From Geminicoccaceae bacterium (GTDB taxonomy: Bacteria > Pseudomonadota > Alphaproteobacteria > Geminicoccales > Geminicoccaceae), in contig DAIRDJ010000004.1 of NCBI GenBank assembly GCA_036796215.1, positions 2,077 to 66,076 on the forward strand: a DNA stretch of 64,000 nt, read 5' to 3'. Positions 13,076 through 29,040 of this stretch are shown here, in pieces. The notes beneath the pieces were generated by a model. The model was not told the DNA's origin, made no database searches, and worked only from the letters and a program-made list of their open reading frames with translations. Each line of letters opens with the position of its first letter. Position 1 is the first letter of the stretch. The translations under genes and the position numbers were made by a program.

Positions 13076-14230
13076 ATGACCGACACCGTTCCCTTTCTCG
13101 ACCTCGCCCGGTCGCACGCCGAGCTGCGTGCCGAGGTCGACGACGCCTGGCACCGGGCGGTCGACAGCTCGGGCTTCATCGGTGGCGCCGCGGTGGAGCG
13201 CTTCGAGACGGATTGGGCCGCCTATTGCGGCACCCGCCATTGCGTCGGCGTCAGCGATGGCACGGCCGCGATCGAGCTCGCACTCGCCGCGCTGCGCATC
13301 GGCCCAGGTGACGAGGTGATCGTGCCGGCAAATACCTTCATCGCGACGGTGGAGGCCGTGACGAAGGTCGCAGCCGTCCCGGTCTTCGCCGATGTCGATC
13401 CCGCGACCCTGTTGCTCGATCCGAACGCAGCGGCAGCGGCAATTGGGCCGCGCACCCGGGCGATCATCGCTGTCCACCTCTATGGTCAGCCTTGCGACAT
13501 GGACGTGCTGCAACCCCTCGCCGATCGCCATGGCCTCGAGCTGATCGAGGACGCGGCGCAGGCGCACGGTGCTACCTGGCGTGGCCGGCGAGCGGGCTCC
13601 CTGGGGCGTGTCGGTTGCTTCAGCTTTTATCCCGGCAAGAATCTGGGGGCTTTCGGCGATGCCGGGGCGGTGACCACCGACGATCCGGCGATCGCCCAGG
13701 AAATCCGCAGCCGCGCCAATCACGGTCGGCCGCTGGGCATCGCCGAGCGCTGCGATGTGCTTGACGGCAACCACCGCCTTGATGCCTTGCAGGCCGCGAT
13801 TTTGGCCGTCAAGCTCCGCCACCTCGATCGCTGGAACGCCGCGCGGGCTGCTGTGATGCAGCGCTACGTGGCCGAGCTCGGCCCGGCGGGTTTGGCCTTC
13901 CCGACCATCCGCGACGAGGCGACCAGCAGCTGCCATCTTGCGATTGCCCTCGTTCCCGACCGCGACGAGGTGCGCCGGCGACTCGCGGCCGCCGGAATCG
14001 CCACTGGCATCCACTACGCCATTCCCTGCCACCGTCAGCCGGCCTGCGCCGAGCTCGTGGCGCGCGCCCGTCTCGCACCAGAGGTGCCGGTGGTCGACGC
14101 GACCGCGGGCCGACTCCTGTCGCTGCCGCTATTCCCGCAGCTCACCGGCGGAGAGGTGCAGCGGGTGATCGATGCGGTCACGGCGATCCTTGCGACGACT
14201 GACCCGGCGATCAGGGACCGGGCTGCATGA
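13076..14230 (+). CDS. DegT/DnrJ/EryC1/StrS-family PLP-dependent sugar aminotransferase
   Basis: ORF 13073..14230. VPFLDL start, GGAAVERFE, DGTAAIELAL, IVPANTFIAT and FSFYPGKNLGAFGDAG motifs. Confidence 0.85.
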   Translation: MTDTVPFLDLARSHAELRAEVDDAWHRAVDSSGFIGGAAVERFETDWAAYCGTRHCVGVSDGTAAIELALAALRIGPGDEVIVPANTFIATVEAVTKVAAVPVFADVDPATLLLDPNAAAAAIGPRTRAIIAVHLYGQPCDMDVLQPLADRHGLELIEDAAQAHGATWRGRRAGSLGRVGCFSFYPGKNLGAFGDAGAVTTDDPAIAQEIRSRANHGRPLGIAERCDVLDGNHRLDALQAAILAVKLRHLDRWNAARAAVMQRYVAELGPAGLAFPTIRDEATSSCHLAIALVPDRDEVRRRLAAAGIATGIHYAIPCHRQPACAELVARARLAPEVPVVDATAGRLLSLPLFPQLTGGEVQRVIDAVTAILATTDPAIRDRAA

Positions 14231-15432
14231 CCAGCGCCGAGCTCACCGGCAGTAGAACAGGCGAGTCGGCCATCGCTCTCGGTTCAGCGGTCGGAAGCAG
14301 CGCTGGCGATGCTCTGCTGTGGCCGTGCGCGGGCGTTGTCCCGAGCCCCGCCGAGCGGGCCTGGGATCGCTTCGTCGAGGCGCATCCGGGCGGTGATGTG
14401 GTGCAGACGGCGGCTTGGGCGCAAAGCAAGCAGGCGACGGGATTTGCCGTGGCGGTTGCGGTGAGCCGTGACGCCAGTGGCGTGATCGCCGGCGGTGGAC
14501 TTGTGATCGCGCGACGGGTGGCGCTGGCCGGTGGGCGCTTGCCGGTGGCGACTGTGGGTTACGTTGCCCGCGGCCCGCTGGTGACGAGCACCGATGCGGC
14601 CACGATCGACCGGGTGCTGGACTCGGTCGAGGCGGCGGCGCGCCGGCTCGGTATCATGCACCTCGTCGTCCAGCCGTCGAGTGACGGTGCCGCGATCGCA
14701 GCGCGACTCGTGCAGCGCGGCTACGACGCTGGTGCCATGGCGGTAGCGCCGACGGCGACACTGGTGATCGATCTGACGCCTGACCTCGACAGCGTCTTTG
14801 CGGGGATGTCCGCGTCGCAGCGGCGCAATCTGCGCAAGGCGAAGAAACTGGGCGTCCGGGTGCGCCGCGCCGCCGACACTGACCTTTCGACCTTCCATGC
14901 CCTGCAGGAAGCGACCGCCGCTCGGCAAGGCTATCAACCGCTGTCCCTCGCGTATCTGGAGGCGCAGTGGCAAGCATTGCGGCCGCTCGGCGCCATCGAG
15001 ATCTTCCTCGTATCCGCGCCCGACGCCCCGGAGCGGCCGATTGCGGGCACGTTGGTGACTGCCTATGCCGGCAGGGTCACGGACAAGATCCCGGGCTGGA
15101 CCGGCGAGGCTCCGGCTTTGCAGCCCAATGTCGCCTGCATCTGGGAGGCAATCACCTGGGCCAAGGCCGGGGGGTTTCGTCACTTCGATCTCGGTGGGCT
15201 GCCAAGGGATGCGGCAGCAGCACTCTTGGCCGGCGACCGCACCAGGGAAGCACATGGCGAGCGCAACCCTGCCGCCTTCAAGGCCCGTTTCGGTGGCAGC
15301 GTCGTGATGTTGCCCGAGGCGCTGCAGCGCACCTTCAACCCGGTTCTGCGCCCGGCCCTCCGCTTCGCCTGGCGCCAGCTGGTCACCAGTCCCCGCCTCA
15401 AGTCATTTGTGAACGGTCTGCGCAATGGTTGA
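14227..15432 (+). CDS. FemAB-family (lipid II:aminoacyl-transferase-like) GNAT-fold protein
   Basis: ORF 14227..15432. VVQTAAWAQSK..., RGPLV, QRRNLRKAKKLGV, YAG...IPGW, WEAITWAKAGGFRHFDLGG follow the FemX/FemAB layout. ATGA overlap with the aminotransferase gene. Confidence 0.65.
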   Translation: MTSAELTGSRTGESAIALGSAVGSSAGDALLWPCAGVVPSPAERAWDRFVEAHPGGDVVQTAAWAQSKQATGFAVAVAVSRDASGVIAGGGLVIARRVALAGGRLPVATVGYVARGPLVTSTDAATIDRVLDSVEAAARRLGIMHLVVQPSSDGAAIAARLVQRGYDAGAMAVAPTATLVIDLTPDLDSVFAGMSASQRRNLRKAKKLGVRVRRAADTDLSTFHALQEATAARQGYQPLSLAYLEAQWQALRPLGAIEIFLVSAPDAPERPIAGTLVTAYAGRVTDKIPGWTGEAPALQPNVACIWEAITWAKAGGFRHFDLGGLPRDAAAALLAGDRTREAHGERNPAAFKARFGGSVVMLPEALQRTFNPVLRPALRFAWRQLVTSPRLKSFVNGLRNG

Positions 15433-16078
15433 TCATCCGCCCGCCGCCACCCTTGGGCGCGGCCGCATCGACGGTCAGCGCCTGTTCGACCTGACCCTCA
15501 CCATCCCGATCCTGATTCTAATCGCACCCGTGCTTCTGCTTGCCGCCATCGCGGTCGGGCTGACCAGTCGCGGGCCCGTGCTGTTTCGCCAGATCCGCGT
15601 TGGCCGGGGCGAACAGCCGTTCTGGATGCTCAAGTTCCGCACGATGTACGTCGATGCCGACCATCGCTTGCAGGAAGAGATGAATCGCCGCGAGCTGATG
15701 GGTGAGGCGGTCGCCGAGAACGGTCTTTACAAGCCCGCACTCGATCCGCGGATCACCCCGGTCGGTCAGGTTCTGCGCAAGAGCAGCATCGACGAGCTGC
15801 CCCAGCTCTTCAATGTTCTGAAGGGCGAGATGTCGCTGGTTGGTCCACGTCCCGCCTTGCCATTCGAGGTCGAGCTGTTCACGCCCGAGGAGCGGCGCCG
15901 CCACGACTGCCGCCCCGGGATCACCGGCGTTTGGCAGGTCTGCGGCCGCAATCGCTTGTCCATGCGCAAGATGCTCGCGCTCGATCTCGTCTACGTCAAC
16001 TACCGCTCGTTCAAGCTCGATCTTTGGGTGCTCCTGAAGACCCCGAAGGCCGTTCTGTTCGAGCGGGCGACGCGCTGA
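15425..16078 (+). CDS. Small monotopic phosphoglycosyl transferase (bacterial sugar transferase family, PglC/WbaP C-domain type)
   Basis: ORF 15425..16078. LFDLTLTIPILILIAPVLLL re-entrant helix, GPVLFRQIRVG, KFRTM, DELPQLFNVLKGEMSLVGPRP. Confidence 0.9.
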   Translation: MVDHPPAATLGRGRIDGQRLFDLTLTIPILILIAPVLLLAAIAVGLTSRGPVLFRQIRVGRGEQPFWMLKFRTMYVDADHRLQEEMNRRELMGEAVAENGLYKPALDPRITPVGQVLRKSSIDELPQLFNVLKGEMSLVGPRPALPFEVELFTPEERRRHDCRPGITGVWQVCGRNRLSMRKMLALDLVYVNYRSFKLDLWVLLKTPKAVLFERATR

Positions 16079-16088
16079 GCGTACGCCG

Positions 16089-17039
16089 GTGACGACACTC
16101 CTGATCGCCACCACGGGCGGCCACCTGGCACAGCTGGTGGAACTTGCCGGACGACTGCCCGGCATCGGCCCCGAGCGGCTCTGGGTGACGTTCGATACGC
16201 CGCAGAGCCGCTCGCTCTTGGCCGGCCAGGCGGTGCGTTTCATCCCGTTCATCCACGAGCGTGACGTGTTGGGCGTCGCCCGCGGGACCGCGATCTGCCG
16301 GCAGCTGTTCAAGGAGTTGCCCATCGAGGCCGTCGTCAGCACCGGCTCGGCTATCGCTTTGGCCTTTCTTCCCTATGCGGCGCTGCGTGGGGTTCCGGCC
16401 CACTACATCGAAAGCTCGGCCAGGGTAGGGGCGCCCTCTCTCACCGGTCGCCTGCTCGCCGGCATGCCCGGCATCCGGCTCTATCGGCAGTACCCGCACG
16501 CCGCGACCGGCCGCTGGGTCTATGGCGGCTCGGTTTTCGATGTGTTCGCCGTCGCCCCCGGTCTCGTCGAGGCCGCCCCGGTGCGCCGCGCAGTCGTTAC
16601 CCTGGGCAGCGTCGAGCAGAGCTTTCGCCGACTGCTCGACCATCTGGTCCCACTCCTGCGCGCGGATGCCGAGGTGCTCTGGCAGACCGGACACACGCCG
16701 ACCGACGGCCTCGGCATCGAGGCGCGCCCGTTCCTGCCGGCAAGCGAGCTCGCCGGTGCCATGGCCACGGCCGACGTCGTCGTGGCTCACGCCGGTTGCG
16801 GCTCCGCTCTTGGAGCGCTCAATGCCGGCAAGCTGCCGATCCTCGTCCCCCGCGATGCCGCTCGAGGCGAGCTTGTGGATGGCCATCAGATCGAGCTCGC
16901 GCGCTGGCTCGCCGGGCGCGGCCTCGCCTTGCACCGGTCGCCCGAGAGCCTGACCTTGGCCGACCTCGAGCACGCGGCTGCAGTGCGGGTGCGGCGCACG
17001 GTCGAACCGCCACCCTTTGCCTTGGCGAGTGCAGCATGA
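16089..17039 (+). CDS. Fused Alg14-like / Alg13-like (GT28 C-terminal, MurG-fold) glycosyltransferase
   Basis: ORF 16089..17039 (GTG). The N-terminal half LLIATTGGHLAQL is Alg14/PssD-like. The C-terminal half VVTLGS...VVAHAGCGSALGALNAGKLPILVPR...GELVDGHQIELA is Glyco_tran_28_C/PssE-like. Confidence 0.75.
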   Translation: MTTLLIATTGGHLAQLVELAGRLPGIGPERLWVTFDTPQSRSLLAGQAVRFIPFIHERDVLGVARGTAICRQLFKELPIEAVVSTGSAIALAFLPYAALRGVPAHYIESSARVGAPSLTGRLLAGMPGIRLYRQYPHAATGRWVYGGSVFDVFAVAPGLVEAAPVRRAVVTLGSVEQSFRRLLDHLVPLLRADAEVLWQTGHTPTDGLGIEARPFLPASELAGAMATADVVVAHAGCGSALGALNAGKLPILVPRDAARGELVDGHQIELARWLAGRGLALHRSPESLTLADLEHAAAVRVRRTVEPPPFALASAA

Positions 17040-18142
17040 CTGCCGTTGCATCTATCCGACTGCGTGATGGACTGTTTGGTGCCGATCCGGATGACACTGC
17101 GCTCATGGCGCTGCGCCCCGATGATCCGCGCTACGCCGCCTTTGCCGAGCGGCACGCTTTTGCTGGCTTGTTCACCTCACCGCCCTGGCTGCGGGCGCTC
17201 GAGGTCGCCTATGGCTTCACCGTTGAGATCGCCACCCTTTGCCGCGCCGGTGCGATCGTGGCCGCCATTCCTCATTGTCGTCTCGATGATCTGCGTGGCC
17301 CGCGGGTCGTTGCACCCCCGTTCTCCGACTACGGCGATCCCCTGGTCGAAAGTCCAATCGATCTCTCGCTGCTGCTCGAGCATCTCGCGGCCTTCGGCTG
17401 CGGTCTGCGCCTGCGCACGCTGCGCAACCCGCTGCCTGCGCAACATGCCACGCTACAGACCACCGGTGAGGCGTTCTGGCACGGTATCGACCTGGATCGC
17501 CCGCTCGAGACGATTTGGGCCGGGCTCGATGCCTCTGCCCGGCAGAACTGCCGCAAGGCGGAGCGCGGCGGTGTGACCGTGCGGATCGGCTGCAGCGAGG
17601 CGGATCTGGACCTGTTCCACCGCATGCACGTGCATGTGCGCAAGACCAAGTACCGGATGCTGGCCCAGCCCGTCGGCCTCTTTACCGCGATTCAGAGCAC
17701 GTTCACCGTACCGCCCGGGAGCAGCGACGACGTCGCGGTGGTGATCGCCGAAGTGGATGGCGAGCCGATCGCCGGGATCATGCTGATGCTCTGGCAGGGA
17801 ACCGCCTATTACAAATTCAATGCATCATTCGATACCCGACTACGGCCCAACGACCTCCTCGCATGGCACGCGATCCGTTACGCCAAAGAACGCGACTGTC
17901 GTGCGTTCGACTTCGGCATTTCCGATACCGACCAGCCCGGTCTCGTTCGCTACAAGCGCAAATTCGCGACCGAGGAGAAGCTGATGCGGCAGCTGATGCT
18001 GCCGTCGCCACGAGCCACCGCACCGCATGAGCAAATGGCTGGCCGGACCCTCGGCCGGCTGACCGAGCTCCTGACCCGTCCCGAAGTACCCGATGCCGTC
18101 ACAAGGGAGGCTGGCGATGCCCTCTACCGCTATTTCGCCTGA
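17036..18142 (+). CDS. BioF2-like / CelD-type GNAT-fold acyl(aminoacyl)transferase
   Basis: Real part of ORF 16796..18142 from MTAVASIR (ATG 17036, ATGA overlap). ARQNCRKAERGGV, GTAYYKFNASFD, CRAFDFGISD, LVRYKRKFA resemble Acetyltransf_6-type proteins. Confidence 0.6.
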   Translation: MTAVASIRLRDGLFGADPDDTALMALRPDDPRYAAFAERHAFAGLFTSPPWLRALEVAYGFTVEIATLCRAGAIVAAIPHCRLDDLRGPRVVAPPFSDYGDPLVESPIDLSLLLEHLAAFGCGLRLRTLRNPLPAQHATLQTTGEAFWHGIDLDRPLETIWAGLDASARQNCRKAERGGVTVRIGCSEADLDLFHRMHVHVRKTKYRMLAQPVGLFTAIQSTFTVPPGSSDDVAVVIAEVDGEPIAGIMLMLWQGTAYYKFNASFDTRLRPNDLLAWHAIRYAKERDCRAFDFGISDTDQPGLVRYKRKFATEEKLMRQLMLPSPRATAPHEQMAGRTLGRLTELLTRPEVPDAVTREAGDALYRYFA

Positions 18143-19427
18143 GCCCCGGCGGCCGGTCCGCCAGCGCCGCGGCGGTCCGATCGCTGCGGTGCTCGTTGCC
18201 GTCGGGCTGACAGGTGCGTCCGTTGGACCGGCCTTCGCCGCCGCCTGGCCCGCCGAGCTCGGCCCGGTGCTTTCCTGGACGCCGCCCGTTGGCGCTGCCA
18301 ATCCCGGACAGTGCACCCGGGTAGTGGACCGCGGCCGTGATCCAGCGGCCAGTATTCAGGCTGCGGTCGACGAGGCCGGACCCGGCGACATGGTTTGCGT
18401 TCGCTCGACGAACCACCGCGACGAAGTCGTCGAGATCGGGCGCTCGGGTGCACCCGGCAGGCCGATCGAGCTCCATGCGCTCGCCGACGTGGTGACCGGC
18501 GGCTTCATCGTCGAGGCCGATGACGTCATCGTCCGCGGCTTCACCGTCCAGACCGGCGCCGCCACGGATGCGGAAGACTGGCGCGCCGGCTTCGAGCTCC
18601 GGGGGCGGCGCCTCGGCATCATCGACAACACGGTCACGGACCCGGCAGGCTACGGCATCCACTGCAGCCTGGGGGCGCCGCACTGCACCGACACGGCGAT
18701 CATCGGCAACACGATCAGCGGTGCCGACGGCAACGGCATCAACGCCATCGGGTATGACCTCCTGGTCGAGGGCAACGACGTCTCGGGCTCGATCAGGCGC
18801 TTAGCCAACGATGCCGACGGCATCCGCTTCTTCGGTGAGCGCCTGCTGCTCCGCGACAACATCGTCCACCGCATCTTCGACCGCGGCTACAAGGGCGAAG
18901 GGCCGCACACCGACTGTTTCCAGAATTTCGATTCCGGCCGGCCCTCGACCCGCGACGTGGTGATCGAGGACAATGTCTGCTTCGACGTCGACCACCAGTG
19001 TCTGATCGCCGAGACACCGGTCCGGCGCGAGGGCGCCAACCTCATCTTTCGACGCAACATCTGCGCGAACAACGGCAGCCAGGGTGTGATGGTTCGCGAG
19101 TTCGACAATTTGCTGGTCGAAGAGAACATTTTTTTATCAACCATCCATTTCAACGCCGTGGTGCTGCGGCAGGAGGTCACCAACGCCACCATTCGCTGCA
19201 ACCTCGTGGTCGGCCGGCCGGCCGTGCACGAGATCGACCAGAGCTCGCGGCAGGGGCTGCGCGTAACGGGCAACCAGCGCGCCGAAAGCCCGGCCGCCGC
19301 ACCCGCCGCGCGCGCGGCCCTCGCCAAGGGCGGCTGCAACGTGCCGCCGCTCTTCCCCTGGCTCAAAAAAAGTGTCCTGCTACCCGACGACACGCTCGTG
19401 GACGCTGGCCGAGAGCTTCGCCTATGA
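18117..19427 (+). CDS. Secreted right-handed parallel beta-helix repeat protein (polysaccharide lyase/hydrolase/epimerase-like)
   Basis: ORF 18093..19427. Start at ATG 18117 (GGGAGG 6 nt upstream). Arg-rich N-terminus plus hydrophobic signal ending AFAAA. Repeated I-x-N/D-N-x-V/I rungs (IIDNTV, IIGNTISG, VEGNDVSG, LRDNIV, IEDNVC, FRRNIC, VEENIF). Confidence 0.65.
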   Translation: MPSTAISPEPRRPVRQRRGGPIAAVLVAVGLTGASVGPAFAAAWPAELGPVLSWTPPVGAANPGQCTRVVDRGRDPAASIQAAVDEAGPGDMVCVRSTNHRDEVVEIGRSGAPGRPIELHALADVVTGGFIVEADDVIVRGFTVQTGAATDAEDWRAGFELRGRRLGIIDNTVTDPAGYGIHCSLGAPHCTDTAIIGNTISGADGNGINAIGYDLLVEGNDVSGSIRRLANDADGIRFFGERLLLRDNIVHRIFDRGYKGEGPHTDCFQNFDSGRPSTRDVVIEDNVCFDVDHQCLIAETPVRREGANLIFRRNICANNGSQGVMVREFDNLLVEENIFLSTIHFNAVVLRQEVTNATIRCNLVVGRPAVHEIDQSSRQGLRVTGNQRAESPAAAPAARAALAKGGCNVPPLFPWLKKSVLLPDDTLVDAGRELRL

Positions 19428-20158
19428 TCGAGATCTATCGTCTACCGTTCTGGCCGGCAGTGCGCTTGGTCTATCGCTCCGGGCGCGTATCGCTCCAACT
19501 CCTGGTCGACCGGGCGCTGGACGTGCGAACGACCCTGCTGCGCAACGAACTCAGCATGGGTCACGATCGACCGCCGGACTTCGATCATGGGCCGGTCGGT
19601 TGGATCAGGCTGTTGCGCATCTTCCGTCATCTAGCCCCGAACCGGGCGGACGTGCTCTATGACGTCGGCTCGGGCAACGGCCGAGCGGTCGTGGTCGCCG
19701 GCCAGTTCCCGTTCGGCAAGATCGTTGGCGTCGAGATTTCGCCCGACATGCACGCACAGGCCAAGGCAAACCTCGCGAGCTGCCGGCTGAGGCCCAAAGC
19801 AGCAGTCGAGCTCTTGCATGGTGATGCTCTCGCGCAGCCGATCCCCGACGACACGTCGGTCGTCTATTTCTACAACTCGTTCACCGGGCCGGTTTTTGAT
19901 CGTTTCGTCGATCATCTTCTCGACGATCTCGATCAAAACCCGAGACCGCTGCGGTTCGTCTATACCAACCCCATCGAGCACCCTAAGCTGGAAGCCGACG
20001 AGCGCTTTCGGCTCGTCCACCGTATTCGCGGCTGGCGCCCGACGGCGAACTGGTCGCGGATGCTGAGCACGCATTTCTATGAAATCCTGCCATCGGATGC
20101 CGCCGCTCGTGCCCTGGCTCGCGGAGAGCGTGATGCTGGCCAGCGAACTGCACAGTGA
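19424..20158 (+). CDS. Class I SAM-dependent methyltransferase (paralog 1)
   Basis: Real part of ORF 18998..20158 from MIEIYRLPFW (ATGA overlap at 19424). Motif I VLYDVGSGNGR, then VGVEIS and HGDAL. Confidence 0.75.
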   Translation: MIEIYRLPFWPAVRLVYRSGRVSLQLLVDRALDVRTTLLRNELSMGHDRPPDFDHGPVGWIRLLRIFRHLAPNRADVLYDVGSGNGRAVVVAGQFPFGKIVGVEISPDMHAQAKANLASCRLRPKAAVELLHGDALAQPIPDDTSVVYFYNSFTGPVFDRFVDHLLDDLDQNPRPLRFVYTNPIEHPKLEADERFRLVHRIRGWRPTANWSRMLSTHFYEILPSDAAARALARGERDAGQRTAQ

Positions 20159-20179
20159 TATGAACGGAGCGTCGCGACC

Positions 20180-20887
20180 ATGATAGACATTCATCGCCTG
20201 CCGTTCTGGCCGGCCCTCCGGCTGCCCTATCGCTTCGCCCGCTCGTCGCTGCAGATCGCCGTCGACAAGTCTTTGGGTGTGCAGACCACGTTGCTGGATA
20301 ACGAGCTCCATGTCGGCCTCGACCGCCCAGCGACATTCAAGCACGGCCCGGTCGGCTGGACCACGCTCTGGCGAATCTTCCGCCGCCTCGGCCCGGCGCC
20401 GGAAGACGTGCTCTATGAGGTCGGCTGCGGCAACGGCCGGCCACTGATCGTGGCGCGACAGTTCCCTTTCAAGCGACTGGTCGGCATCGAGCTGTCCGCC
20501 CGCATGCATGAGCAGGCCGTCGCCAACCTTGCCAGCTGCCGGTTGGGGCCCAAGAGCCCGGTCGAGCTGATCAATGGCGACGCCCTCGCTCAGCCGATCC
20601 CCGAAGGCACCTCGATTGTGTTCTTCTCGAGCCCCTTTCAGGGCGAGCTTTTTGATCGCTTCATCGCCAATCTGCTCGACGATCTCGATAGCCACCCGCG
20701 CCGCTTGCGCTTCGTCTACTATAACCCGCGCGAGCACGCCAAGCTCGAGGCATCGGGTCGTTTTCGCCTCGACCATCGCTTTCGCGGACTGCGACCGAGC
20801 CGCGAGTGGTCGCGAATGCTGACCACGCACTTCTACGAGGTTCTACCATCCGACGCCGGGCGGCCATCGTCGGCGGATCGCAAGTAG
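20180..20887 (+). CDS. Class I SAM-dependent methyltransferase (paralog 2)
   Basis: ORF 20180..20887. Colinear, gap-free similarity to the preceding gene (MIDIHRLPFWPALRL..., VLYEVGCGNGR, VGIELS, NGDALAQPIP). Confidence 0.75.
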   Translation: MIDIHRLPFWPALRLPYRFARSSLQIAVDKSLGVQTTLLDNELHVGLDRPATFKHGPVGWTTLWRIFRRLGPAPEDVLYEVGCGNGRPLIVARQFPFKRLVGIELSARMHEQAVANLASCRLGPKSPVELINGDALAQPIPEGTSIVFFSSPFQGELFDRFIANLLDDLDSHPRRLRFVYYNPREHAKLEASGRFRLDHRFRGLRPSREWSRMLTTHFYEVLPSDAGRPSSADRK

Positions 20888-20904
20888 CGTGAAGGAGACA
20901 GGTG

Positions 20905-21774
20905 ATGTCCTCGACCAGCGCGGAGTTGCGCCGACCCAAGGGCAGTGACGCGAGCGTGGCGGCTCGCGTCGCGATCGACCAAAAGGGCACCCGCCTGCCG
21001 ATGCGCTCGAGCCGACTGGCGAACGAGGCCGGTGGGCTGGCGGTGGCGACCTCGCCGCTCGAGCCCACCGCGATGCCCGCGGCAATACCGGGCCCTCCCG
21101 ACGAGGGGCACCCTGTCGCGAACCGCGCCATGCAGCCGACCGACCGACGGCTGCCGCACGGTGCCGCTTCGGCGCCGGCTGCAGCCGTCCCCGAAGCGAC
21201 AGCCCCTGGCCGCCGCACCGCTGGGGTCGGCCGAATTCTGCTCTCGCTGGCGCTCCTCTTCTTGCTGCCGGTGCTGCTCGCCGCGACAGCCGGCTATCTA
21301 GCCGCCACTTATCTCGAGGAAGTCCGTGCCGGCCGCAGCGAGATCATGTTTCACCTGCCGGACCTCGCCGGCGACGCTGCCGGACGCTTCCTCGCCACCC
21401 AGCCCGTGGTGGTCCGCAGCTACCCGGTGGTCGAGCCCGCCGCCCGGGCCGAGGCGATGCCGGTCAACGACATTCTCGGCAATCTCGACGTCACCATGGT
21501 GGAGAGCAGCGCCCTGATGCGCATCGAGTACCAGGACACCGACAGCGAGCGGATTCTGCGCGTGCTCGAGGCCGTCACCGTTGGCTATCTCGGCCTGTTG
21601 CGCGACATCGCGATGATCGAGGGGGCGAGCCATCGGATCCTGAGCGCCCCCTATCTGCTAGAGGAACCGGTCGGACCGAAGCCCATCCAGGCTGCCGCCA
21701 TCGCCGCCGTGGTCGGGCTCGCCGTAGCCTTTGCCGGCCTCGTTATCCTCGCCCAACTGCGTCGTCCGGCCTGA
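20905..21774 (+). CDS. Short polysaccharide co-polymerase (Wzz/PCP-like) with a Pro/Ala-rich cytoplasmic N-terminal extension
   Basis: ORF 20902..21774. ATG 20905 has AAGGAG 7 nt upstream. TM1 ILLSLALLFLLPVLLAATAGYL, a periplasmic segment of about 130 aa, and the hallmark Pro-rich motif EEPVGPKP immediately before TM2. Confidence 0.6.
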   Translation: MSSTSAELRRPKGSDASVAARVAIDQKGTRLPMRSSRLANEAGGLAVATSPLEPTAMPAAIPGPPDEGHPVANRAMQPTDRRLPHGAASAPAAAVPEATAPGRRTAGVGRILLSLALLFLLPVLLAATAGYLAATYLEEVRAGRSEIMFHLPDLAGDAAGRFLATQPVVVRSYPVVEPAARAEAMPVNDILGNLDVTMVESSALMRIEYQDTDSERILRVLEAVTVGYLGLLRDIAMIEGASHRILSAPYLLEEPVGPKPIQAAAIAAVVGLAVAFAGLVILAQLRRPA

Positions 21775-21787
21775 CGCCGGTGCGTGG

Positions 21788-23470
21788 ATGGACTCGATGA
21801 CGACGTCGGTGGGCAAGGTGGCCGATGCGACCGCGGCCGAGTCGGCAGGGGCGCGACACCGCGCCGATGTGAGCGAGCTCGCCGGCCACTCGCGGACCGT
21901 CCTCGTCTGGACAGTCGCCAGCCGGGCCGCGGGTTTCTTGCGCGCCGCGCTTCTCGCCGCCGTCCTCGGCCCGACCTTCTTCGGCAATCTCGTGCAGACG
22001 AGCCTGGTCCTGCCCCACCTCGTCTGCCAGCTCCTGATGGCGTCGCTAGTCCCGGCGATCTTGACCCCGCACTTGGTGCGCCTGCTCGACGCCGGCGAGC
22101 GGGAGCAGGCGCACCGCCTGACCTGCAGCTTCTTCGGTCTTGCCTGCGCCTGCTTCGGCGTCGCCGCCCTGCTGACGGTGCTCGCCGCTCCGCTGATCCT
22201 GCCGGTCTTGACCGTCGCGGTCGAGGACCCGGCCATCCGCATGGCGCAGCACGATCTCGGCTGGTACCTCATTCTCTGCATCGCGCCGCAGATCCCGCTG
22301 TTCGGCGTCGTCTCGATCGGTATCGCGGTCCAGCAGGCGCAACGCCGGTTCGCGCTCGCGACTGCTGCCCCCGCCTTCGAAAGTCTCGGCTTCGGCCTGA
22401 TCCTCGCCCTGAGCGCCTTGGTCTTCGGCATCGGTAGCGATATCGACGAGATCAGCCACGCCCAGGTCCTCTTCATCGGCATCGGTGCCACGCTCGCCGT
22501 CACCTGCCATGCCGCCGTGCAGTGGTGGGGGGCTTTTCGTCTCGGCGTGACGCTCCGGCCGCGGGGCGGCTGGTTCGCCCCGGAGCTCCGCGCGGTGCTG
22601 CGCATGGCGCTGCCGTCGAGTGGCAACGCCATCCTGGTCTCGCTCGGCTGGGTCGCGATGCTGGTCGTCGCCGGCGGCATCCCCGGCGGTGCGGTTGCCT
22701 TCCAGATCGCCTACAACCTCTTCAACCTGCCGATAGCACTTTGCGCCCGGCCGATCGCAACGGCCCAGCTGCCGCTGATGGCGAGCCGCATCGCTGGAGG
22801 TAGCAGTGCTACCGCCCTCTTTCACGATGCGCTGCGGTTGACCTTCTTCGTCGCTTTGCCGGCCGCCCTCGTCTTTCTCCTCATGGCCGACCAGCTGGCA
22901 CTGCTGATCAGCGTCGGCGGCATGCGCACCGAGGCCGGCCTCGGCCTCGTTACGATAGCCATTGCGGGGCTCGGCCTCGCCCTGCTCGGCGAAGGCGTCA
23001 TGGTGGTGTCGAGTTCCGCCGCCTACGCCCGCCACGACGCCGCTTCGCCCTTTCGCGCGATGGCGCTGCAGACCGCGATCCTCGGCTGCGGCCTCGTGCC
23101 GATCGCACTGCTCACCGATGGCGCCGAGCGGCTCGGCGCCATCGGTCTCGTCTTCTCGGCTGCTACGCTGGTCGGCGGTCTCTACCTCTACCGTGCCCAG
23201 CTCGCAGCCGGCCGCCCGAAGGTCGACTGGTCGCTCGCCCGCGACCTCGGCTGCGCCATCGTCGCCGTCGGCGTCGGCGTCGCAATGGTCGACGTCTGGC
23301 CCGGCCCGGCGGGTATCGTTCCGGCGCTCGTCAGCTTGACCGTTGCAGCCCTGCTCTATCTCGCGATCCAATGGCTCGCGAGCTCGCGGGAGCTCGCCCT
23401 CGTGCTGCGAACCGTTCGCCCTTCTGGAGCTGTCGGCGGTACGGCCACGCATGGCGAGGTTCGCGGCTGA
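21788..23470 (+). CDS. MurJ/MviN-type MOP-superfamily lipid-linked glycan flippase
   Basis: ORF 21731..23470. N-terminal SRAAGFLRAALLAAVLG... resembles the MurJ SRxxGFxRd motif. About 14 predicted TM segments. Confidence 0.7.
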   Translation: MDSMTTSVGKVADATAAESAGARHRADVSELAGHSRTVLVWTVASRAAGFLRAALLAAVLGPTFFGNLVQTSLVLPHLVCQLLMASLVPAILTPHLVRLLDAGEREQAHRLTCSFFGLACACFGVAALLTVLAAPLILPVLTVAVEDPAIRMAQHDLGWYLILCIAPQIPLFGVVSIGIAVQQAQRRFALATAAPAFESLGFGLILALSALVFGIGSDIDEISHAQVLFIGIGATLAVTCHAAVQWWGAFRLGVTLRPRGGWFAPELRAVLRMALPSSGNAILVSLGWVAMLVVAGGIPGGAVAFQIAYNLFNLPIALCARPIATAQLPLMASRIAGGSSATALFHDALRLTFFVALPAALVFLLMADQLALLISVGGMRTEAGLGLVTIAIAGLGLALLGEGVMVVSSSAAYARHDAASPFRAMALQTAILGCGLVPIALLTDGAERLGAIGLVFSAATLVGGLYLYRAQLAAGRPKVDWSLARDLGCAIVAVGVGVAMVDVWPGPAGIVPALVSLTVAALLYLAIQWLASSRELALVLRTVRPSGAVGGTATHGEVRG

Positions 23471-24939
23471 TGGCGAGCCTCGGCGTCACCGCCTTGCCTT
23501 CAGGTCACAGCGACCGGCGTCGCCCGGTTTGGCCGCTCCTTCTCGGCCTCGTCGGCGTCAGCCTCGCCGCCGCTCTCGGCGGTGTCGCCACCGGCCTCGG
23601 CGAACTGAAGGGTGCGGCGGTTGCCATCGCCGTGCCGATCGGTCTCGCGATCTACGCAGCACCACAGCTCGGCCCCTATCTCTGGCTCCTCGCGAGCCCG
23701 CTGACCGTCGGTCTCGCCCGCGGCGATATCCTGCCCTTCGTCCGCCCCAACGAAGCCTTGCTGCTGCTGATCCTCGGCGCCGTCGCGTTTCGCGTCGTCC
23801 CGCTCGTGCTCGCCGGCCGCTGGCGTCTGCCGCCACTCGGCCGCTTCGATCTCGCCCTCGGCCTGTTGGTGGTCACGGGCTCGCTCCTGCCCGTGTGCAT
23901 CCGCCTCGGCCGCGATCTGCCGCTCGCCACGGACGACGTGCTCTACAGCCTCGTGTTGATCAAATACCTGCTCCTCTACACGCTGTTTCGCCTGACCATC
24001 ACCACCACGGCGCAGGTGCGCGTCTGCCTCGTGTTGGCCCTCGCCGCGGCCGTGCCGGTGGCCCTCGTTGCGCTCTTGCAGGTTAACGGCCTGTTCGGCG
24101 TGCCGGAGTTCCTCGCGCGGTACTACGACTCGCCGTTCTCCGGCGGGCAAGGCGCTCCGGTCACCTCCCGCGGCACCTCGACCGTGGCGAGCTCATTCGG
24201 TGTCGCCAACCTCATGATCCACACCGCGAGCATCGTCTCCGGATGGATGATCGTCTACGGCCGGCCGCGTGGCGTGCTGCTCTGTATGGGAGTGGTCTGC
24301 TTGTTCGGCGTGCTCGCCGCCGGCCAGTTCTCCGGTATCATCGGCGTCGCCATCGCGATCACCATCACCGGTTGGCTGATCGGCCGGCTGCGCCAGGTCA
24401 TGCTCTGGGCACTGCCGGCCCTGGCCCTCGGTGCAGCACTGCTCTGGCCGGTTCTCGAACAACGGCTGAGCGGGTTTGAGCGGGATTCCGGTCTGCCGCA
24501 GAGCTGGGAAGGTCGCATCGACAATATGGAACGCTTCATTCTTCCGGAGCTCGCCTCGGGCGACAACTGGTTTCTCGGCGTCCGCCCCGCACCTCGGGTC
24601 GCCGCACCCGAATGGTGGCGCGAGTACGTCTATATCGAAAGCGGCTATGTTTGGCTGTTGTGGATCGGCGGCGTGCCGTTCCTCGTGGCTTTCCTCGCTT
24701 TTGCCTGGGTCGGGATCACCGAGTTCGGCCGGGTCTGCCGAACACGCCAGGATGCCGTCGGCATCGCCGCACTCGCGGCGACCACCGGTCTTACCATAGT
24801 GACCGTCCTGATGCTGTTCGATCCCCACCTCACGATGCGCGGCGGCGCCGATCTGATGTTCCCGCTCATGGCCCTCGCCCTGCTGGGGCCGGCCGCGCGC
24901 CCCGATCCCGTCGTACCAGCCGAGCGAGCTCGACCATGA
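23470..24939 (+). CDS. O-antigen ligase/Wzy-like polytopic membrane protein (candidate polymerase)
   Basis: Real part of ORF 23371..24939 from MASLGVTAL (TGATG overlap at 23470). Many TM segments with one larger loop (FERDSGLPQSWEGRIDNMERF...). Confidence 0.6.
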   Translation: MASLGVTALPSGHSDRRRPVWPLLLGLVGVSLAAALGGVATGLGELKGAAVAIAVPIGLAIYAAPQLGPYLWLLASPLTVGLARGDILPFVRPNEALLLLILGAVAFRVVPLVLAGRWRLPPLGRFDLALGLLVVTGSLLPVCIRLGRDLPLATDDVLYSLVLIKYLLLYTLFRLTITTTAQVRVCLVLALAAAVPVALVALLQVNGLFGVPEFLARYYDSPFSGGQGAPVTSRGTSTVASSFGVANLMIHTASIVSGWMIVYGRPRGVLLCMGVVCLFGVLAAGQFSGIIGVAIAITITGWLIGRLRQVMLWALPALALGAALLWPVLEQRLSGFERDSGLPQSWEGRIDNMERFILPELASGDNWFLGVRPAPRVAAPEWWREYVYIESGYVWLLWIGGVPFLVAFLAFAWVGITEFGRVCRTRQDAVGIAALAATTGLTIVTVLMLFDPHLTMRGGADLMFPLMALALLGPAARPDPVVPAERARP

Positions 24940-27900
24940 CCCGCAGCCCATCTTCACATACCCGACGCATCGCCTGGCTCGCCGGCCTGACCCTGCTCGC
25001 CGCCTGCAACTACGAGAGCGGCGAGCGGGCGCTCGAACGGGGCGACGAGATGCGCGCCGCCGAGATTTGGCAGCCGCTCGCCAGGCGCGGCGACATGCGC
25101 GCGGCCCTGGCCCTGGCACGCCTCGACACCGGCGCAGATGCCACGCCGGCGGAGCTCGACGAGGCCGAGCGCGAACTCCGGCGGGTGCTCCGCCTCGGCG
25201 AGGGCTGGCAACAGGGCTGGGCCTACTACGAGCTCGCCCGTGTGGAACGCCAGCGCGACCGGCCGGTCGAAGCCGCGGCCTATTACGAGGAAGCGCTGGA
25301 GCGCGGTGTCGAATGGGCCGCCTACGACCTCGGCCAACTCTTGGCCGAGGGCAGGGGGGTCCAACCGGACCCGGCACGCGCCTTGCGTCTCACCGAGCAG
25401 GCCGCCGACGAAGGCGTGGCACCGGCGATGACCGCGATGGGCACGTTCTACGTCCGGGGCATCGGCGTCGCCGCCGATCCCGAAGCCGCTAGGCGCTGGT
25501 ACGAGAAAGCCGCCGCGGCCGGCGATCCCTGGGGCCAATTCGCCCTCGGCCAATTGCTGCTGGCCGCCGATCGCGAAGGCGGCGAGCTCGACCCCGCCGG
25601 TGCTGCGGCAGCGTTCGAGGCGGCTGTCGCCGAGGGCATCGTCCAGGCGAAACTACCGCTCGCCGACCTCCTCCTGCCATTCGACCCGGCTACGGCCGAG
25701 GTCGTTCCCGCGGATCCGAACCGGGCCCTCGCCCTCTATACCGAGGCGGCCGCGGCCGGCGATGCCTGGGCGAGCTATCGCCTCGCCGAAATCTACGCCT
25801 CCGGCCGGCTCGCCCCGGCCGACCCCGAGCGCGCGGCCAAGCATTACGCCAAAGCGGCGGAAGGCGGCATCGGCCTGGCGGCGAAGGCCTTGGGCCGGCT
25901 CTACGAGCTCGGCCAGGGTGTGCCGGTCGATCCGGCCCGCGCCGCTGACCTCTACACCACTGCGGCAGCCGAGGGCGATATCGACGCCGTGCTGGGCCTC
26001 ATTCGGCTCGCCCGCCTGCCCGATCCCCCGCCGATCGACACAACCACGCTTCTGGCCGAACTGGAGGTGGCGCTCGACCTGCGCCCCGCCGATGCCGGTC
26101 AGGTTCTGGGCGACCTCTATCTCGCGGGTGATCTCGTCCCGACCGACCCCGTGTTGGCCACAGGCTACCTGGAGACAGCGCTCGCCGCCGGCAACACGAC
26201 GGTCCGGCCGCGCCTGGCACGGCTCTATCTCGATCCTACGCTTGAGCTCGGTGGTGCCGGCCGCGACGCCGAGGCGGGCCGGAGACTCTTGGAGGACGCC
26301 GCTGGCGAGGGTGACCCCAATGCCGCCTTCGAGCTCGCCCGCCTGCTCGAGGCGCCACCCGCGGCCGATCCGGCGCGCGCTCGCAGCCTCTATACCGCGG
26401 CTGCCGAAGCCGGCGTCGCGGCCGCGCAAAAAGCGCTTGCCGACCAGTTCCGTGACGGGATCGGTGGCCCCCAGGATCGCGACCTCGCCGTCCGGTGGTA
26501 TGAGGTCGCGGCGGCCGGCGGTGATCCCTGGGCCGCTTTCGAACTCGCCCGCCTGCTCGAAACGGGCGCTGGCGTGGCTGCCGATCCGGCTCGTGCCCGC
26601 AGCCTCTACGCTAGGGCGGCGGCTGCACAAATCGCCCCGGCCCAGCAGGCGCTGGCCGGCATGCTGCGCGACGGTCGAGGTGGTCCCCCCGACATCGTGG
26701 CGGCGGGGCGCTGGTATCGGGCCGCGGCAGATGCCGGTGAGCCTTGGGCCGCCTACGAGCTGGCACAGCTCTATGCCGCGGACACGGCGGGCGTTCTGCC
26801 GGCCGATCGCAGCCGCACCGAGACCATGACCATCCTCTACCGCTCCGCTGCCAATGCTGGCATCCCGCAGGCTCAGTTGGCTCTAGGCGATCTCTTGGCC
26901 GATCCCGCGAACCCGGCCGCCGATCCGGCGGCGGCAGCCGCCTGGTACGAGCGGGCGATGGCTTCCGGCGAACCCATAGCGGCCTTCCGCCTTGCGCGGT
27001 TGCCATCACCCGGCACCACATCCGCGAACCTCGAGCCGAGGCGGCGCGCATTGCTCGAGGAGGCGGTCGCCGCCGGCGTGCCGGGTGCAGCTACAGAGCT
27101 CGCGCGGCTGCTGGAATCGGACGAGGACGGGGCCCCCGATCCGGCTCGGGCTCTGGAGCTGTACCAAAGTGCCGCTGCCGAGGGTGATCCCTGGGCGGCA
27201 CTTGCCTTGGGTCGCCACTACCAGGGGGACGCGCGGACGCCGACCCGGGGATCGCGGGATCCGGATCTGGCAATTGTCTGGCTCGAGCAGGCCGCCGCGG
27301 CCGACATTGCCGAAGCGAAGCGCCGCCTCGGTGACCTCTATGCCGATTCGGCGAGCGACCACTTTGCCCCCGAGAGCGCCGTGCGCTGGTACGAAGCTGC
27401 AGCTGCGGACGGTGACGAGTGGGCCATGATAGAGCTTGCCAAGCTCAGGATGGATGGCCCGGCCGGCATCGCCGATCCGGCGGCTGCCGCCCGGGCGCTC
27501 GAGCCACTCGCCGAGGCCGGGCTGCCGCAGGCGCAGAAGCTGCTGGGCGACCTCTATGATCGCGGCCAGGGGGTGCGGGCCGATCCAGAAACCGCTGTCG
27601 CCTGGCACCGCGCGGCGGCGCAAGGGGGTGATCCCTGGGCCGCGTTCGCGATGGCAGAACGCCATTCGCGGGGCCGCGACGTGCCACGCGATCCGGATCG
27701 GGCCCGCGAGTACTATGTCATCGCGGCGGCGGCCGGTCTGGCGCCGGCACAGCGCTGGCTCGCCGACGCGGAGATGATGCGGGCCATGGCCAGCCGCGGG
27801 GCGGAGGCGGAGGCTGCGCGCGGTAGTGCGGTGACCTGGTATCAAGCGGCGGCCGAGGGCGGGGATGCCCGGGCGCTCTATCGTCTTGGCATTCTGCATC

Positions 27901-28091
27901 TCGACGGCCAGGGTGTGCCGCGCAATCCCGAACGGGCGGTCGAGCTCTTGCAGCGCGCCGCGGCCGCCGGCTCGCCCGACGCCGGGGTGGCCCTCGGCGA
28001 TCTCTACACCATGGGCGGGGCGGTCGATCGCGACAGCGAGCGCGCGGCCTACTGGTACCAGGCCGCGGCCGAGGCGCGCGCCGGCGACTGA
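24936..28091 (+). CDS. Giant Sel1-like repeat (SLR/TPR-like) lipoprotein
   Basis: Real part of ORF 24612..28091 from MTRSPSSHTRR (ATGA overlap at 24936). Lipobox LTLLAAC. About 26 units of the A-x-x-W/LY-x-x-AA-x-x-G...LG-x-LY signature, counted by eye. Confidence 0.85.
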   Translation: MTRSPSSHTRRIAWLAGLTLLAACNYESGERALERGDEMRAAEIWQPLARRGDMRAALALARLDTGADATPAELDEAERELRRVLRLGEGWQQGWAYYELARVERQRDRPVEAAAYYEEALERGVEWAAYDLGQLLAEGRGVQPDPARALRLTEQAADEGVAPAMTAMGTFYVRGIGVAADPEAARRWYEKAAAAGDPWGQFALGQLLLAADREGGELDPAGAAAAFEAAVAEGIVQAKLPLADLLLPFDPATAEVVPADPNRALALYTEAAAAGDAWASYRLAEIYASGRLAPADPERAAKHYAKAAEGGIGLAAKALGRLYELGQGVPVDPARAADLYTTAAAEGDIDAVLGLIRLARLPDPPPIDTTTLLAELEVALDLRPADAGQVLGDLYLAGDLVPTDPVLATGYLETALAAGNTTVRPRLARLYLDPTLELGGAGRDAEAGRRLLEDAAGEGDPNAAFELARLLEAPPAADPARARSLYTAAAEAGVAAAQKALADQFRDGIGGPQDRDLAVRWYEVAAAGGDPWAAFELARLLETGAGVAADPARARSLYARAAAAQIAPAQQALAGMLRDGRGGPPDIVAAGRWYRAAADAGEPWAAYELAQLYAADTAGVLPADRSRTETMTILYRSAANAGIPQAQLALGDLLADPANPAADPAAAAAWYERAMASGEPIAAFRLARLPSPGTTSANLEPRRRALLEEAVAAGVPGAATELARLLESDEDGAPDPARALELYQSAAAEGDPWAALALGRHYQGDARTPTRGSRDPDLAIVWLEQAAAADIAEAKRRLGDLYADSASDHFAPESAVRWYEAAAADGDEWAMIELAKLRMDGPAGIADPAAAARALEPLAEAGLPQAQKLLGDLYDRGQGVRADPETAVAWHRAAAQGGDPWAAFAMAERHSRGRDVPRDPDRAREYYVIAAAAGLAPAQRWLADAEMMRAMASRGAEAEAARGSAVTWYQAAAEGGDARALYRLGILHLDGQGVPRNPERAVELLQRAAAAGSPDAGVALGDLYTMGGAVDRDSERAAYWYQAAAEARAGD

Positions 28092-28191
28092 TGTCCGGCT
28101 GCCCGGTCGAGGATTCCGCTCGAGTGGCTGATTGACAACCATGGCCTTGGCAGAATAAGCGGAATTGTGTTCCGTTTTTAGTCGAGGGTCG

Positions 28192-29040
28192 ATGCGCCAG
28201 TCCGCCACCCGTCGCAGCCTCGCCATCCTCGAGCTGCTCGCCGAGTGTCCCGAAGGCCTGCCGCTCGGCGAACTGGGCCAGCGGCTCGACCTGCCCAAGA
28301 GCGTCGCCCATCGCCTGTTGTCGCTGCTGACCGAGGAGGGCTACACCCGACAGGACAGGGCCACCGGGCACTATGCGCTGACGCTCAAGCTCACCCTCCT
28401 CGGTGCCCGTCATCTTGCTGGCACCGGCCTCGGTGACGTCAGCCAGCCGATCCTCGACCGCCTGGCGCGGGCCACCGGCGAACTCGTCCGCCTCACCGTC
28501 GTCGAGGGCGATGGCCTCGTTTGGGTCGGCAAGGCCCAAGGTGCCCGGCATGGTCTGCGCTACGATCCCGATGCCGGCACGCAGGTGGTGCTGCATGCGA
28601 CCGCGACCGGCAAGGCCTGGCTCGCCACCCTGTCCGAGGCCGAGGCGATGCGCATCGTCGCGGCTACCGCGTTCCGCACCCCAGAGCATTTCGGACCCGA
28701 TGTCATCCGCGATCCCGAGCGGTTTCGCGAGGAGCTCGCCCGCACCCGGGCCCGCGGCTACGGCCTCGCCGTCGAGGAGGGGGAGCCCGGCACGGCCGCC
28801 GTCGCCGTGGTGGTGCGTGCCTCGGCTACCGAAGCGGCACCGGCGGTCGGGACGCTCAGTGTGGCAGGACCGGTCGGCCGGTTCACGCCCGATCGCTGCC
28901 GCCGCTTCGTCGCCGAGATCGAGGCGGCGGCCGGCGAGCTCAGCGGTCTCTGGCCGTTACGCGCGCCATTCGCGAGCGAGCCCGCGCTGCCGCAGGTGCC
29001 GGACACCCTTGCCGAGCGAGGAGTCTTGCAGCATGCCTGA
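28192..29040 (+). CDS. IclR-family transcriptional regulator
   Basis: ORF 28165..29040, start at MRQSATRR. SLAILELLAE...LGELGQRLDLPKSVAHRLLSLL wHTH domain plus an IclR effector domain (GLAVEEGEPG). Confidence 0.85.
   Translation: MRQSATRRSLAILELLAECPEGLPLGELGQRLDLPKSVAHRLLSLLTEEGYTRQDRATGHYALTLKLTLLGARHLAGTGLGDVSQPILDRLARATGELVRLTVVEGDGLVWVGKAQGARHGLRYDPDAGTQVVLHATATGKAWLATLSEAEAMRIVAATAFRTPEHFGPDVIRDPERFREELARTRARGYGLAVEEGEPGTAAVAVVVRASATEAAPAVGTLSVAGPVGRFTPDRCRRFVAEIEAAAGELSGLWPLRAPFASEPALPQVPDTLAERGVLQHA

Follow-up and report, generated by a model that had tools for sequence, protein, structure and literature searches.

The subject of this analysis is a gene for a long lipoprotein built of Sel1 repeats (P0001), which lies in a stretch of 64,000 nucleotides from a Geminicoccaceae bacterium of the Alphaproteobacteria (GenBank assembly GCA_036796215.1, contig DAIRDJ010000004.1, positions 2,077 to 66,076 of the forward strand). 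The whole stretch is called the window, and positions are counted from its first letter unless a locus or contig is named (Table 1). The gene is the last of a co-directional glycan operon of 13 genes, which also encode GFO_IDH_MocA, DegT, FemAB-like, Bac_transf, GT28_C and Acetyltransf_6/FemAB-like proteins, a beta-helix protein, two methyltransferases, a miniature polysaccharide co-polymerase (mini-PCP), a MurJ-type flippase and a polymerase-like protein. Its ATG shares bases with the TGA of the polymerase-like gene (ccATGAcc), which supports co-transcription of the two. A longer open frame begins at 24612; we prefer 24936 as the start because the signal peptide and lipobox are then N-terminal (MTRSPSSHTRRIAWLAGLTLLAAC; …AWLAGLTLLAAC) and because the orthologues begin there. 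The signal consists of an n-region containing RR, a hydrophobic core and L-A-A-C at residues 21-24, a match to the lipobox pattern [LVI][ASTVI][GAS]C by which the protein is classed as a bacterial lipoprotein and predicted to be lipidated. Residues +2 and +3 after the cysteine are N-Y (C[NDS][YF] across the orthologues), and the cysteine itself is kept in ten orthologues (L001, L019, L020, L021, L024, L025, L026, L030, L031 and L032). The next gene, for an IclR regulator, starts about 75-100 bp further on (TTG 28165 or ATG 28193), beyond a spacer of lower GC content, and in the orthologous metagenome locus L001 the gene that follows the Sel1 gene is convergent.

The protein belongs to PF08238, the Sel1 repeat family of tandem 36-residue helix-turn-helix units, and scored 283 bits against the Pfam model (cut-off 30.7). 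A hidden Markov model made from its own units found 25 of them at 15 bits or more, and 28-29 when partial units were included. The residue after the conserved glycine is acidic in one flavour of unit (GDPWA) and non-acidic in the other (G[VIL]xxAQ), and over 23 consecutive strong units the two alternate strictly, for which the chance in a random order is 1/C(23,11) = 7e-7; a weak partial unit (385-401) upsets the register locally. The alternation was judged by this residue-class test in place of a unit-identity parity test, in which same-parity units of P0001 had an identity of 0.40 versus 0.35 for opposite-parity units and the shorter orthologues showed no difference, missed weak units shifting the register. 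Tandem Repeats Finder, applied to the DNA of the gene, detected no period of 108 or 216 nt and no remaining DNA-level tandem repeat, which rules out a recent tandem duplication of units; the duplications are therefore old. The AlphaFold2 model, built on a 30-sequence alignment, contains helices only (56 helices, about 27 hairpins) at a mean predicted local distance difference test score (pLDDT) of 87.2, and its best Foldseek matches in the PDB were the Sel1 proteins 6ok3, 4bwr, 8sxq, 6deh and 1ouv. The protein terminates in a Sel1 unit, without an extra domain. The initial annotation of this locus, which had described a lipobox-bearing Sel1 lipoprotein of about 26 units in two alternating flavours, encoded at the end of the operon and co-expressed with the polymerase through an ATGA overlap, agrees with these results throughout.

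Table 1. The Sel1 lipoprotein gene, its parts and its neighbours in the window.
Feature	Position	Strand	Basis
Sel1-repeat lipoprotein gene (P0001), 1051 aa	24936..28091	+	uninterrupted frame of 1051 codons, stop-free translation; Pfam Sel1; AlphaFold2 all-alpha solenoid; Foldseek
Signal peptide with lipobox L-A-A-C (Cys24)	24936..25007	+	sequence; lipobox conserved in orthologues
Conserved N-terminal module, mature residues 1-130	25005..25394	+	near gap-free alignment in all orthologues; separates orthologues from generic Sel1 proteins
Array of ~27 Sel1 units, flavours GDPWAxxxLA and G[VIL]xxAQxxLGDLY, two-unit super-repeat of ~72 aa	25053..28079	+	unit table, alternation statistic, 56 model helices
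Low-confidence solenoid break, residues 213-254, possible hinge	25572..25697	+	pLDDT <50
Second low-confidence break, residues 437-473, possible hinge	26244..26354	+	pLDDT
WaaL/Wzy/SEDS-fold membrane protein (P0122, "polymerase")	23470..24939	+	AlphaFold2 and fold search; stop overlaps Sel1 gene start
MurJ/MOP-type flippase homologue	21731..23470	+	Pfam MurJ 90 bits; TIGR01695 92.9 bits, under cut-off 235.55
Miniature PCP-like protein (P0123): two transmembrane helices, ~130-aa periplasmic loop, no kinase	20902..21774	+	sequence; weak match to TIGR03007 chain-length-determinant C-terminus
Secreted right-handed beta-helix protein (P0124), possible polymer-modifying enzyme	18093..19427	+	Pfam Beta_helix, signal sequence
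Cytoplasmic part of operon: GFO_IDH_MocA oxidoreductase, DegT aminotransferase, FemAB-like, Bac_transf initiating transferase, GT28_C, Acetyltransf_6/FemAB-like, two methyltransferases flanking the beta-helix gene	11672..20887	+	Pfam, NCBIfam
IclR-family regulator; opens unrelated module, marks end of glycan operon	28165..29040	+	Pfam IclR_C and HTH_IclR; TTGACA in lower-GC spacer upstream

The polymerase-like protein P0122, encoded directly upstream, probably starts at ATG 23470 and not at 23371, because this start overlaps the flippase stop as TGATG (23468-23472) and gives a product of 489 aa, like the homologues (486-489 aa); in the longer frame from 23371 the first 48 residues were modelled with pLDDT below 50. 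P0122 itself had no match in Pfam, its homologue P0200 matched Wzy_C weakly and under the cut-off (E 0.002, 18 bits), and a search of the PDB sequences with the polymerase profile found nothing, placement being by fold search alone. The AlphaFold2 model of P0122 (pLDDT 81.9, predicted template modelling score 0.82) was matched best by the O-antigen ligase WaaL (7tpg; E 1e-3, template modelling score 0.55) and then by FtsW (8p1u), and on the strength of this model the protein probably belongs to the WaaL/Wzy/SEDS fold group. Given the adjoining PCP-like gene, a polymerase is likelier than a ligase.

A scan of species genomes placed the nearest relatives of P0122 in the Geminicoccaceae and others in several alphaproteobacterial families; the family occurs more often in the single-membrane Actinomycetota, Thermomicrobiales and Dormibacterota. 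It has no Pfam model and yet is widespread (window 23371-24939; loci L025-L104). Nearly all of its loci have GFO_IDH, DegT, Bac_transf and a MurJ-type flippase in common besides the polymerase, and the wide distribution of the family, with this sugar-modifying core, over Actinomycetota and several alphaproteobacterial families suggests that the locus has been transferred between single- and double-membrane phyla. Alphaproteobacterial polymerases fall into a single clade of the tree, a three-way polytomy of two groups with Sel1 gene and mini-PCP and one group with a large PCP-2a; its sister is an acidimicrobial group with the mini-PCP only. The actinobacterial mini-PCP loci had no Sel1 gene within 10 kb.

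The Sel1 gene follows a different distribution from that of the core. All 12 alphaproteobacterial loci with a mini-PCP carry an orthologous Sel1 lipoprotein (the window, L001, L019, L020, L021, L024 (with L028 on the same contig), L025, L026, L030, L031, L032 and L042), and it is encoded directly 3' of the polymerase in 11 of them, the remaining locus, L021, being rearranged so that the gene is divergent and upstream. Close orthologues are rare, i.e. one metagenome contig (L001) with 66% identity and identical gene order, and 2 of the 12 other genomes of the source genus; the linkage to the polymerase holds down to about 50% polymerase identity. Beside the distant polymerases stand plain Sel1 lipoproteins of 881 aa (L020), 685 aa (L021) and 681 aa (L024), which have in common the lipobox, a C[NDS][YF]xxG start, N-terminal 130 residues that align near gap-free, and both alternating flavours of unit. 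Mature lengths of the orthologues range from 647 to 1090 residues, the spread being due to whole internal repeat blocks gained or lost at interior points of the array. The arrays of these three loci (L020:11485-14130, L021:1228-3285 and L024:11732-13777) had been given no family in the precomputed Pfam annotation, and a blank in such annotation can thus conceal repeat proteins of biased composition.

The Sel1-type loci have a counterpart in the sister clade. In eight loci (L022, L027, L029, L034, L035, L039, L049 and L084) a PCP-2a, i.e. a Wzz plus a kinase domain, is encoded directly 3' of the polymerase and there is no Sel1 gene; the tree puts L033 in the same group, its contig being too short to show the PCP. 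The PCP-2a-type operon of Roseomonas sp. KE2513 (L034) has as its last gene that of a 445-aa outer-membrane polysaccharide export protein (OPX; L034:17520-18857), in the position that the Sel1 gene has in the window. The complementarity extends to whole genomes: a profile of the conserved N-terminal module scored 124-192 bits in 7/7 Sel1-type genomes and found nothing above 62 bits in 6/6 PCP-2a-type genomes. A search of 400 alphaproteobacterial species genomes with the same profile added no orthologue (the next score was 81 bits, versus 181 for the window's own protein), the family being too rare there to test the polymerase linkage. The secreted beta-helix protein of the operon also follows the envelope of the host, in that most of the alphaproteobacterial loci encode it, in two subfamilies, and no actinobacterial locus does; by this distribution it is apparently a second addition specific to double-membrane hosts. 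The two methyltransferases whose genes flank it (18998-20887 for the pair) are paralogues, with 62-66% protein identity by tblastn.

Beyond the orthologues, the remaining Sel1 matches, at about 30% identity, represent generic repeat similarity. Three distant secreted Sel1 giants (P0003, P0006 and P0007) lie within Wzx/Wzy loci that have no OPX within 10 kb. These are non-lipoproteins of 1084-1364 aa (L016:10001-14095, L017:1865-5119 and L018:5086-8448) and adjoin PCP-2a, Wzy_C and Metallophos domains, fused in 2/3 of the loci; the same three loci also hold a conserved protein of about 250 aa with a single transmembrane helix and no family (alignment A2). Elsewhere in the source genome, on contig C139:6550-9702 (minus), a frame of about 1050 aa has four Sel1 units near its C-terminal third and a different architecture. 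Sel1 arrays turn up in many contexts as promiscuous modules, and one of the four next-best giants (P0005) lies outside any polysaccharide locus, as might be expected if the gene in the window were a passenger that had come to the end of the operon by chance and had no role in the glycan. This is very improbable, since the linkage to the polymerase survives to the lowest identities noted above and through a rearrangement, and the gene is kept in every Sel1-type genome and absent from every PCP-2a-type genome examined.

The reading that we favour, tentatively and at a little short of an even chance, is that the Sel1 lipoprotein is a dedicated periplasmic adaptor of a glycan assembly line in double-membrane hosts, a few Gram-negative bacteria of soil and water, where it would stand in for the periplasmic domain of a PCP-2a. 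A scaffold role is indicated because the orthologues are linked to the polymerase, are limited to double-membrane hosts and are replaced position for position by PCP-2a in the sister clade, and of the roles considered it is the one that this comparison backs best; to this extent the periplasmic scaffold proposed in the initial annotation stands, although not as a substitute for an exporter (see below). The presence of the more distant giants P0003, P0006 and P0007 in Wzx/Wzy loci, a recurrence of the same theme, also speaks for it. The function is one that we infer solely from the distribution of genes.

Several observations weigh against this adaptor. The complementarity of Sel1 gene and PCP-2a reflects no more than one or two evolutionary switches, the tree requiring 2 changes of label, and a rule of Sel1 in place of PCP-2a does not hold generally, because the Sel1 giants of L016-L018 coexist with PCP-2a. 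The mature length varies 1.7-fold (647-1090 aa) and the net charge of the orthologues spans -54 to +16, a variability which argues against a fixed ruler or a single conserved electrostatic surface for binding the glycan; an electrostatic argument for glycan binding was dropped on account of the charges. The +2 position is occupied by N, S or D in different orthologues and so gives no clear sign of the membrane of anchoring. P0122, with WaaL as its best fold match, may be a ligase rather than a polymerase. Finally, an OPX was found in each of the 20 further genomes checked in the genus and family, whether these had the locus or not.

The ligase question bears directly on another possible role of the lipoprotein, that of a carrier or anchor of the glycan: if P0122 were a ligase or an O-oligosaccharyltransferase, the Sel1 protein might be its acceptor or might retain the product at the surface, and no exporter for free polymer would be needed. 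The overlap of the two genes and the lack of a cis-encoded exporter in any Sel1-type locus would suit such a carrier, as would the resemblance to WaaL. Yet a PCP-like gene lies beside members of the P0122 family in nearly all loci, which points to polymerisation, in Actinomycetota as in the PCP-2a clade the family works with no Sel1 protein beside it, and the repeats are poor in the residues serine and threonine (S 2.3%, T 3.3%), so that we regard a carrier as quite improbable.

As a scaffold, the Sel1 protein would be a variation on the tetratricopeptide repeat (TPR)/Sel1 scaffolds known from synthase-dependent systems. It resembles AlgK of Pseudomonas alginate synthesis in being a lipoprotein of Sel1/TPR-like hairpins encoded in a polysaccharide operon, with a presumed role as periplasmic link from the inner-membrane machinery to the exit in the outer membrane. 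However, AlgK has only about 450 aa, and its partners are the synthase Alg8/Alg44 and the neighbouring porin AlgE, whereas the window protein has 1051 aa, belongs to a pathway of the flippase/polymerase type and has no adjacent porin. It is not an orthologue, as it matched the AlgK model NF038194 of NCBIfam with 113.8 bits in three partial stretches (cut-off 700), and the context is not of the AlgK type either: the operon has no synthase or barrel and instead combines a Bac_transf initiator with a MurJ-type flippase and a protein of the WaaL/Wzy fold. The TPR domains of PgaA, BcsC and PelB are long periplasmic alpha-solenoids that bind polymer and modifying enzymes (PMC9384988), to which the secreted beta-helix enzyme encoded at the window locus offers a parallel. 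Unlike the window protein, these arrays form part of synthase systems, each is fused to a beta-barrel of its own, and none is a lipoprotein. The window protein is not an exporter of the TPR-plus-porin type, in which the solenoid is fused or adjacent to a barrel of 16-18 strands, since it ends in a Sel1 unit and the only BBP2_2 barrel of the genome is encoded on contig C18. Identity with MotX or MerG was also rejected, since the matches in NCBIfam were far under the cut-offs and due to the repeat only.

PCP-2a proteins of the Wzc type, which function with Class-1 or Class-3 OPX, bridge polymerase and OPX across the periplasm (PMC12819527). In the sister clade their genes have the same position as the Sel1 gene, directly after the polymerase, but there is no sequence relation: the PCP-2a fold is a transmembrane coiled-coil octamer with a kinase, and the window protein is a lipid-anchored solenoid. 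Full-text literature searches found no described Sel1 lipoprotein in a locus of the Wzx/Wzy type, and none accompanying a mini-PCP in a flippase/polymerase pathway, although their coverage was incomplete and this is not proof of absence.

ExoR, too, is a periplasmic Sel1 protein of Alphaproteobacteria connected with the production of exopolysaccharide, and it raises the possibility of an envelope regulator, in which the solenoid would sense the state of polymer or envelope and control synthesis either post-translationally or via a sensor kinase, as ExoR does with ExoS/ChvI or as has been proposed for PrsT. The PCP-2a that takes the place of the Sel1 gene in the sister clade has a regulatory tyrosine-kinase domain, two operon proteins are weakly similar in NCBIfam to FemAB and chain-length proteins of PEP-CTERM systems, and the variable length and charge of the orthologues suit a binder better than a ruler. 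However, ExoR is a non-lipoprotein of about 268 aa whose gene lies apart from biosynthetic genes and whose target is the kinase ExoS, and the window protein matched the ExoR model (NCBIfam NF045484) at the level of the repeat, with 71 bits against a cut-off of 450. PrsT (TIGR02917), a TPR lipoprotein of about 900 aa from PEP-CTERM systems that goes with the two-component system PrsK/PrsR, was absent from the NCBIfam matches at E<=0.001, and no two-component genes, i.e. neither sensor kinase nor response regulator, were present in any of the related loci read. Regulation alone would also fail to explain why the gene keeps so close to that of the polymerase and why it is confined to double-membrane hosts, and we consider a regulator unlikely, if still worth bearing in mind.

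The fold of the window protein is shared by EnhC of Legionella pneumophila, a periplasmic Sel1 giant, and by LpnE (6deh), LceB (8sxq), HcpC (1ouv), 6ok3 and 4bwr, none of which is encoded in a glycan operon. EnhC is comparable to the window protein in size and repeat number and similar in overall architecture; it acts on a lytic transglycosylase (it binds Slt), and its sequence relation to the window protein is confined to the repeat. An adaptor at the peptidoglycan interface, of the kind of the TPR lipoproteins LpoA and NlpI or of EnhC, would recruit or restrain wall enzymes, so that the polymer might cross the peptidoglycan or be joined to it. The locus, with its MurJ-type flippase, its GT28_C (MurG-like) transferase and two FemAB-like enzymes, has components in keeping with this, most of its relatives belong to single-membrane Actinomycetota, in which a wall-associated product is likely, and other Sel1 proteins of about 1000 aa among the matches carry PG_binding_1 (P0026, P0033 and P0035). 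Neither the protein nor the loci contain a peptidoglycan-binding domain, a wall hydrolase or a wall synthase, though, and the mutual exclusion with PCP-2a would not be accounted for; this role is unlikely.

How a polymer would leave the cell is a question for the genome as a whole. The window contains neither an OPX nor a BBP2_2 barrel according to searches with Poly_export and BBP2_2, other barrel types being unscreened, and no OPX or barrel was seen in the Sel1-type loci with up to 10 kb on each side. The source genome has exactly one Poly_export gene and one BBP2_2 homologue, both on contig C18 outside the window. The OPX (P0250) is a lipoprotein of about 180 mature residues with the lipobox LALAAC and consists of Poly_export and one SLBB only; it is encoded directly downstream of the 494-aa BBP2_2 barrel (C18:14809-17124 = L015:6809-9124, minus). 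By domain content and gene order the two fit the design of a Class-3 OPX with a beta-barrel translocon, in which a short OPX lipoprotein of Poly_export and SLBB domains has no membrane-spanning helix and its gene adjoins that of a barrel porin; a Class-3 OPX working with a porin has been described for Myxococcus (PMC9603273, PMC9601211, PMC12819527). The same arrangement, barrel then OPX, occurs once and far from the locus in 6/7 Sel1-type genomes, these six being all those that yielded an OPX. We rejected a specific coupling of this pair to the Sel1 locus, as the pair is core to the genus and family regardless of the locus. Against its single OPX the source genome sets 6-7 genes for PCP-2a and 5 for Bac_transf (four besides that of the operon); a missing cis exporter is therefore normal here and not special to the Sel1 locus, and the one OPX/barrel exit probably serves several polysaccharide loci.

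These results alter one part of the initial annotation, which had seen in the lipoprotein a candidate replacement for a missing exporter. Its observation that no barrel or OPX is encoded here is right for the window as far as Poly_export and BBP2_2 are concerned but not for the genome, in which the search it had proposed for an orphan OPX or barrel turned up the Class-3-type pair on C18. The replacement itself is not upheld: an OPX/barrel pair exists in trans, an alpha-solenoid cannot itself form a pore in the outer membrane, and the likeness to AlgK is at the level of the repeat only. The annotation had also allowed that the locus might be merely truncated, as an OPX or barrel gene directly downstream in relatives would indicate; the Sel1-type loci, seen with up to 10 kb on each side, have none in that position.

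In the adaptor reading the operon encodes an assembly line resembling those of Gram-positive bacteria, in which a small phosphoglycosyl transferase and a MurJ/Wzx-type flippase are combined with a WaaL/Wzy-fold polymerase and a mini-PCP of two helices, with no exporter of its own. Alphaproteobacteria would have adapted this core to a periplasm by one or other of two mutually exclusive arrangements. The first has a large PCP-2a encoded directly after the polymerase, once with a full-size OPX at the end of the operon; in the second, that of the window, the mini-PCP is retained and the Sel1 lipoprotein is encoded directly after the polymerase. The solenoid may then do the job of the long periplasmic domain of a PCP-2a, or of AlgK and the TPR modules of PelB, BcsC and PgaA. 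It would be held by its N-terminal lipid anchor, probably in the outer membrane, and would dock via the conserved N-terminal module, and the variable repeat array could bind the nascent chain, or the polymerase and mini-PCP, or the secreted beta-helix enzyme, and so lead the polymer through the periplasm. The outer membrane itself might be crossed by way of the trans-encoded Class-3-type OPX lipoprotein and BBP2_2 barrel, supposing that these make contact with the solenoid and that the polymer leaves the cell.

In current models of export, the Wzx/Wzy and ABC pathways use PCP and OPX proteins and the synthase pathways use a TPR scaffold and a barrel; PMC9603273 states that crossover between parts of the Wzx/Wzy type and the synthase type had not been identified. 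A further possibility, which we hold to be doubtful, is that a Wzx/Wzy-type line with only a Gram-positive-style mini-PCP, joined to a Class-3 OPX/barrel exit by a lipid-anchored Sel1 solenoid in place of PCP-2a, constitutes a fourth trans-envelope route for polysaccharides. If true, this would make the window locus the first such crossover, joining a scaffold of the synthase type to a flippase/polymerase pathway. About 100 Å of periplasm is left unexplained in Class-3 OPX systems (PMC9603273), and on the same condition the Sel1 solenoid would suggest what fills this gap. A practical weakness is that the carriers are nearly all uncultured metagenome genomes. The same polymerase family is found with three envelope solutions, i.e. 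the mini-PCP alone in single-membrane hosts, PCP-2a (once with an OPX) in one alphaproteobacterial clade, and the mini-PCP with a Sel1 lipoprotein in the others, and these would amount to a natural swap experiment on what is needed of a periplasm-spanning part. The locus would thereby show how a Gram-positive-style glycan line can be fitted to a double-membrane host.

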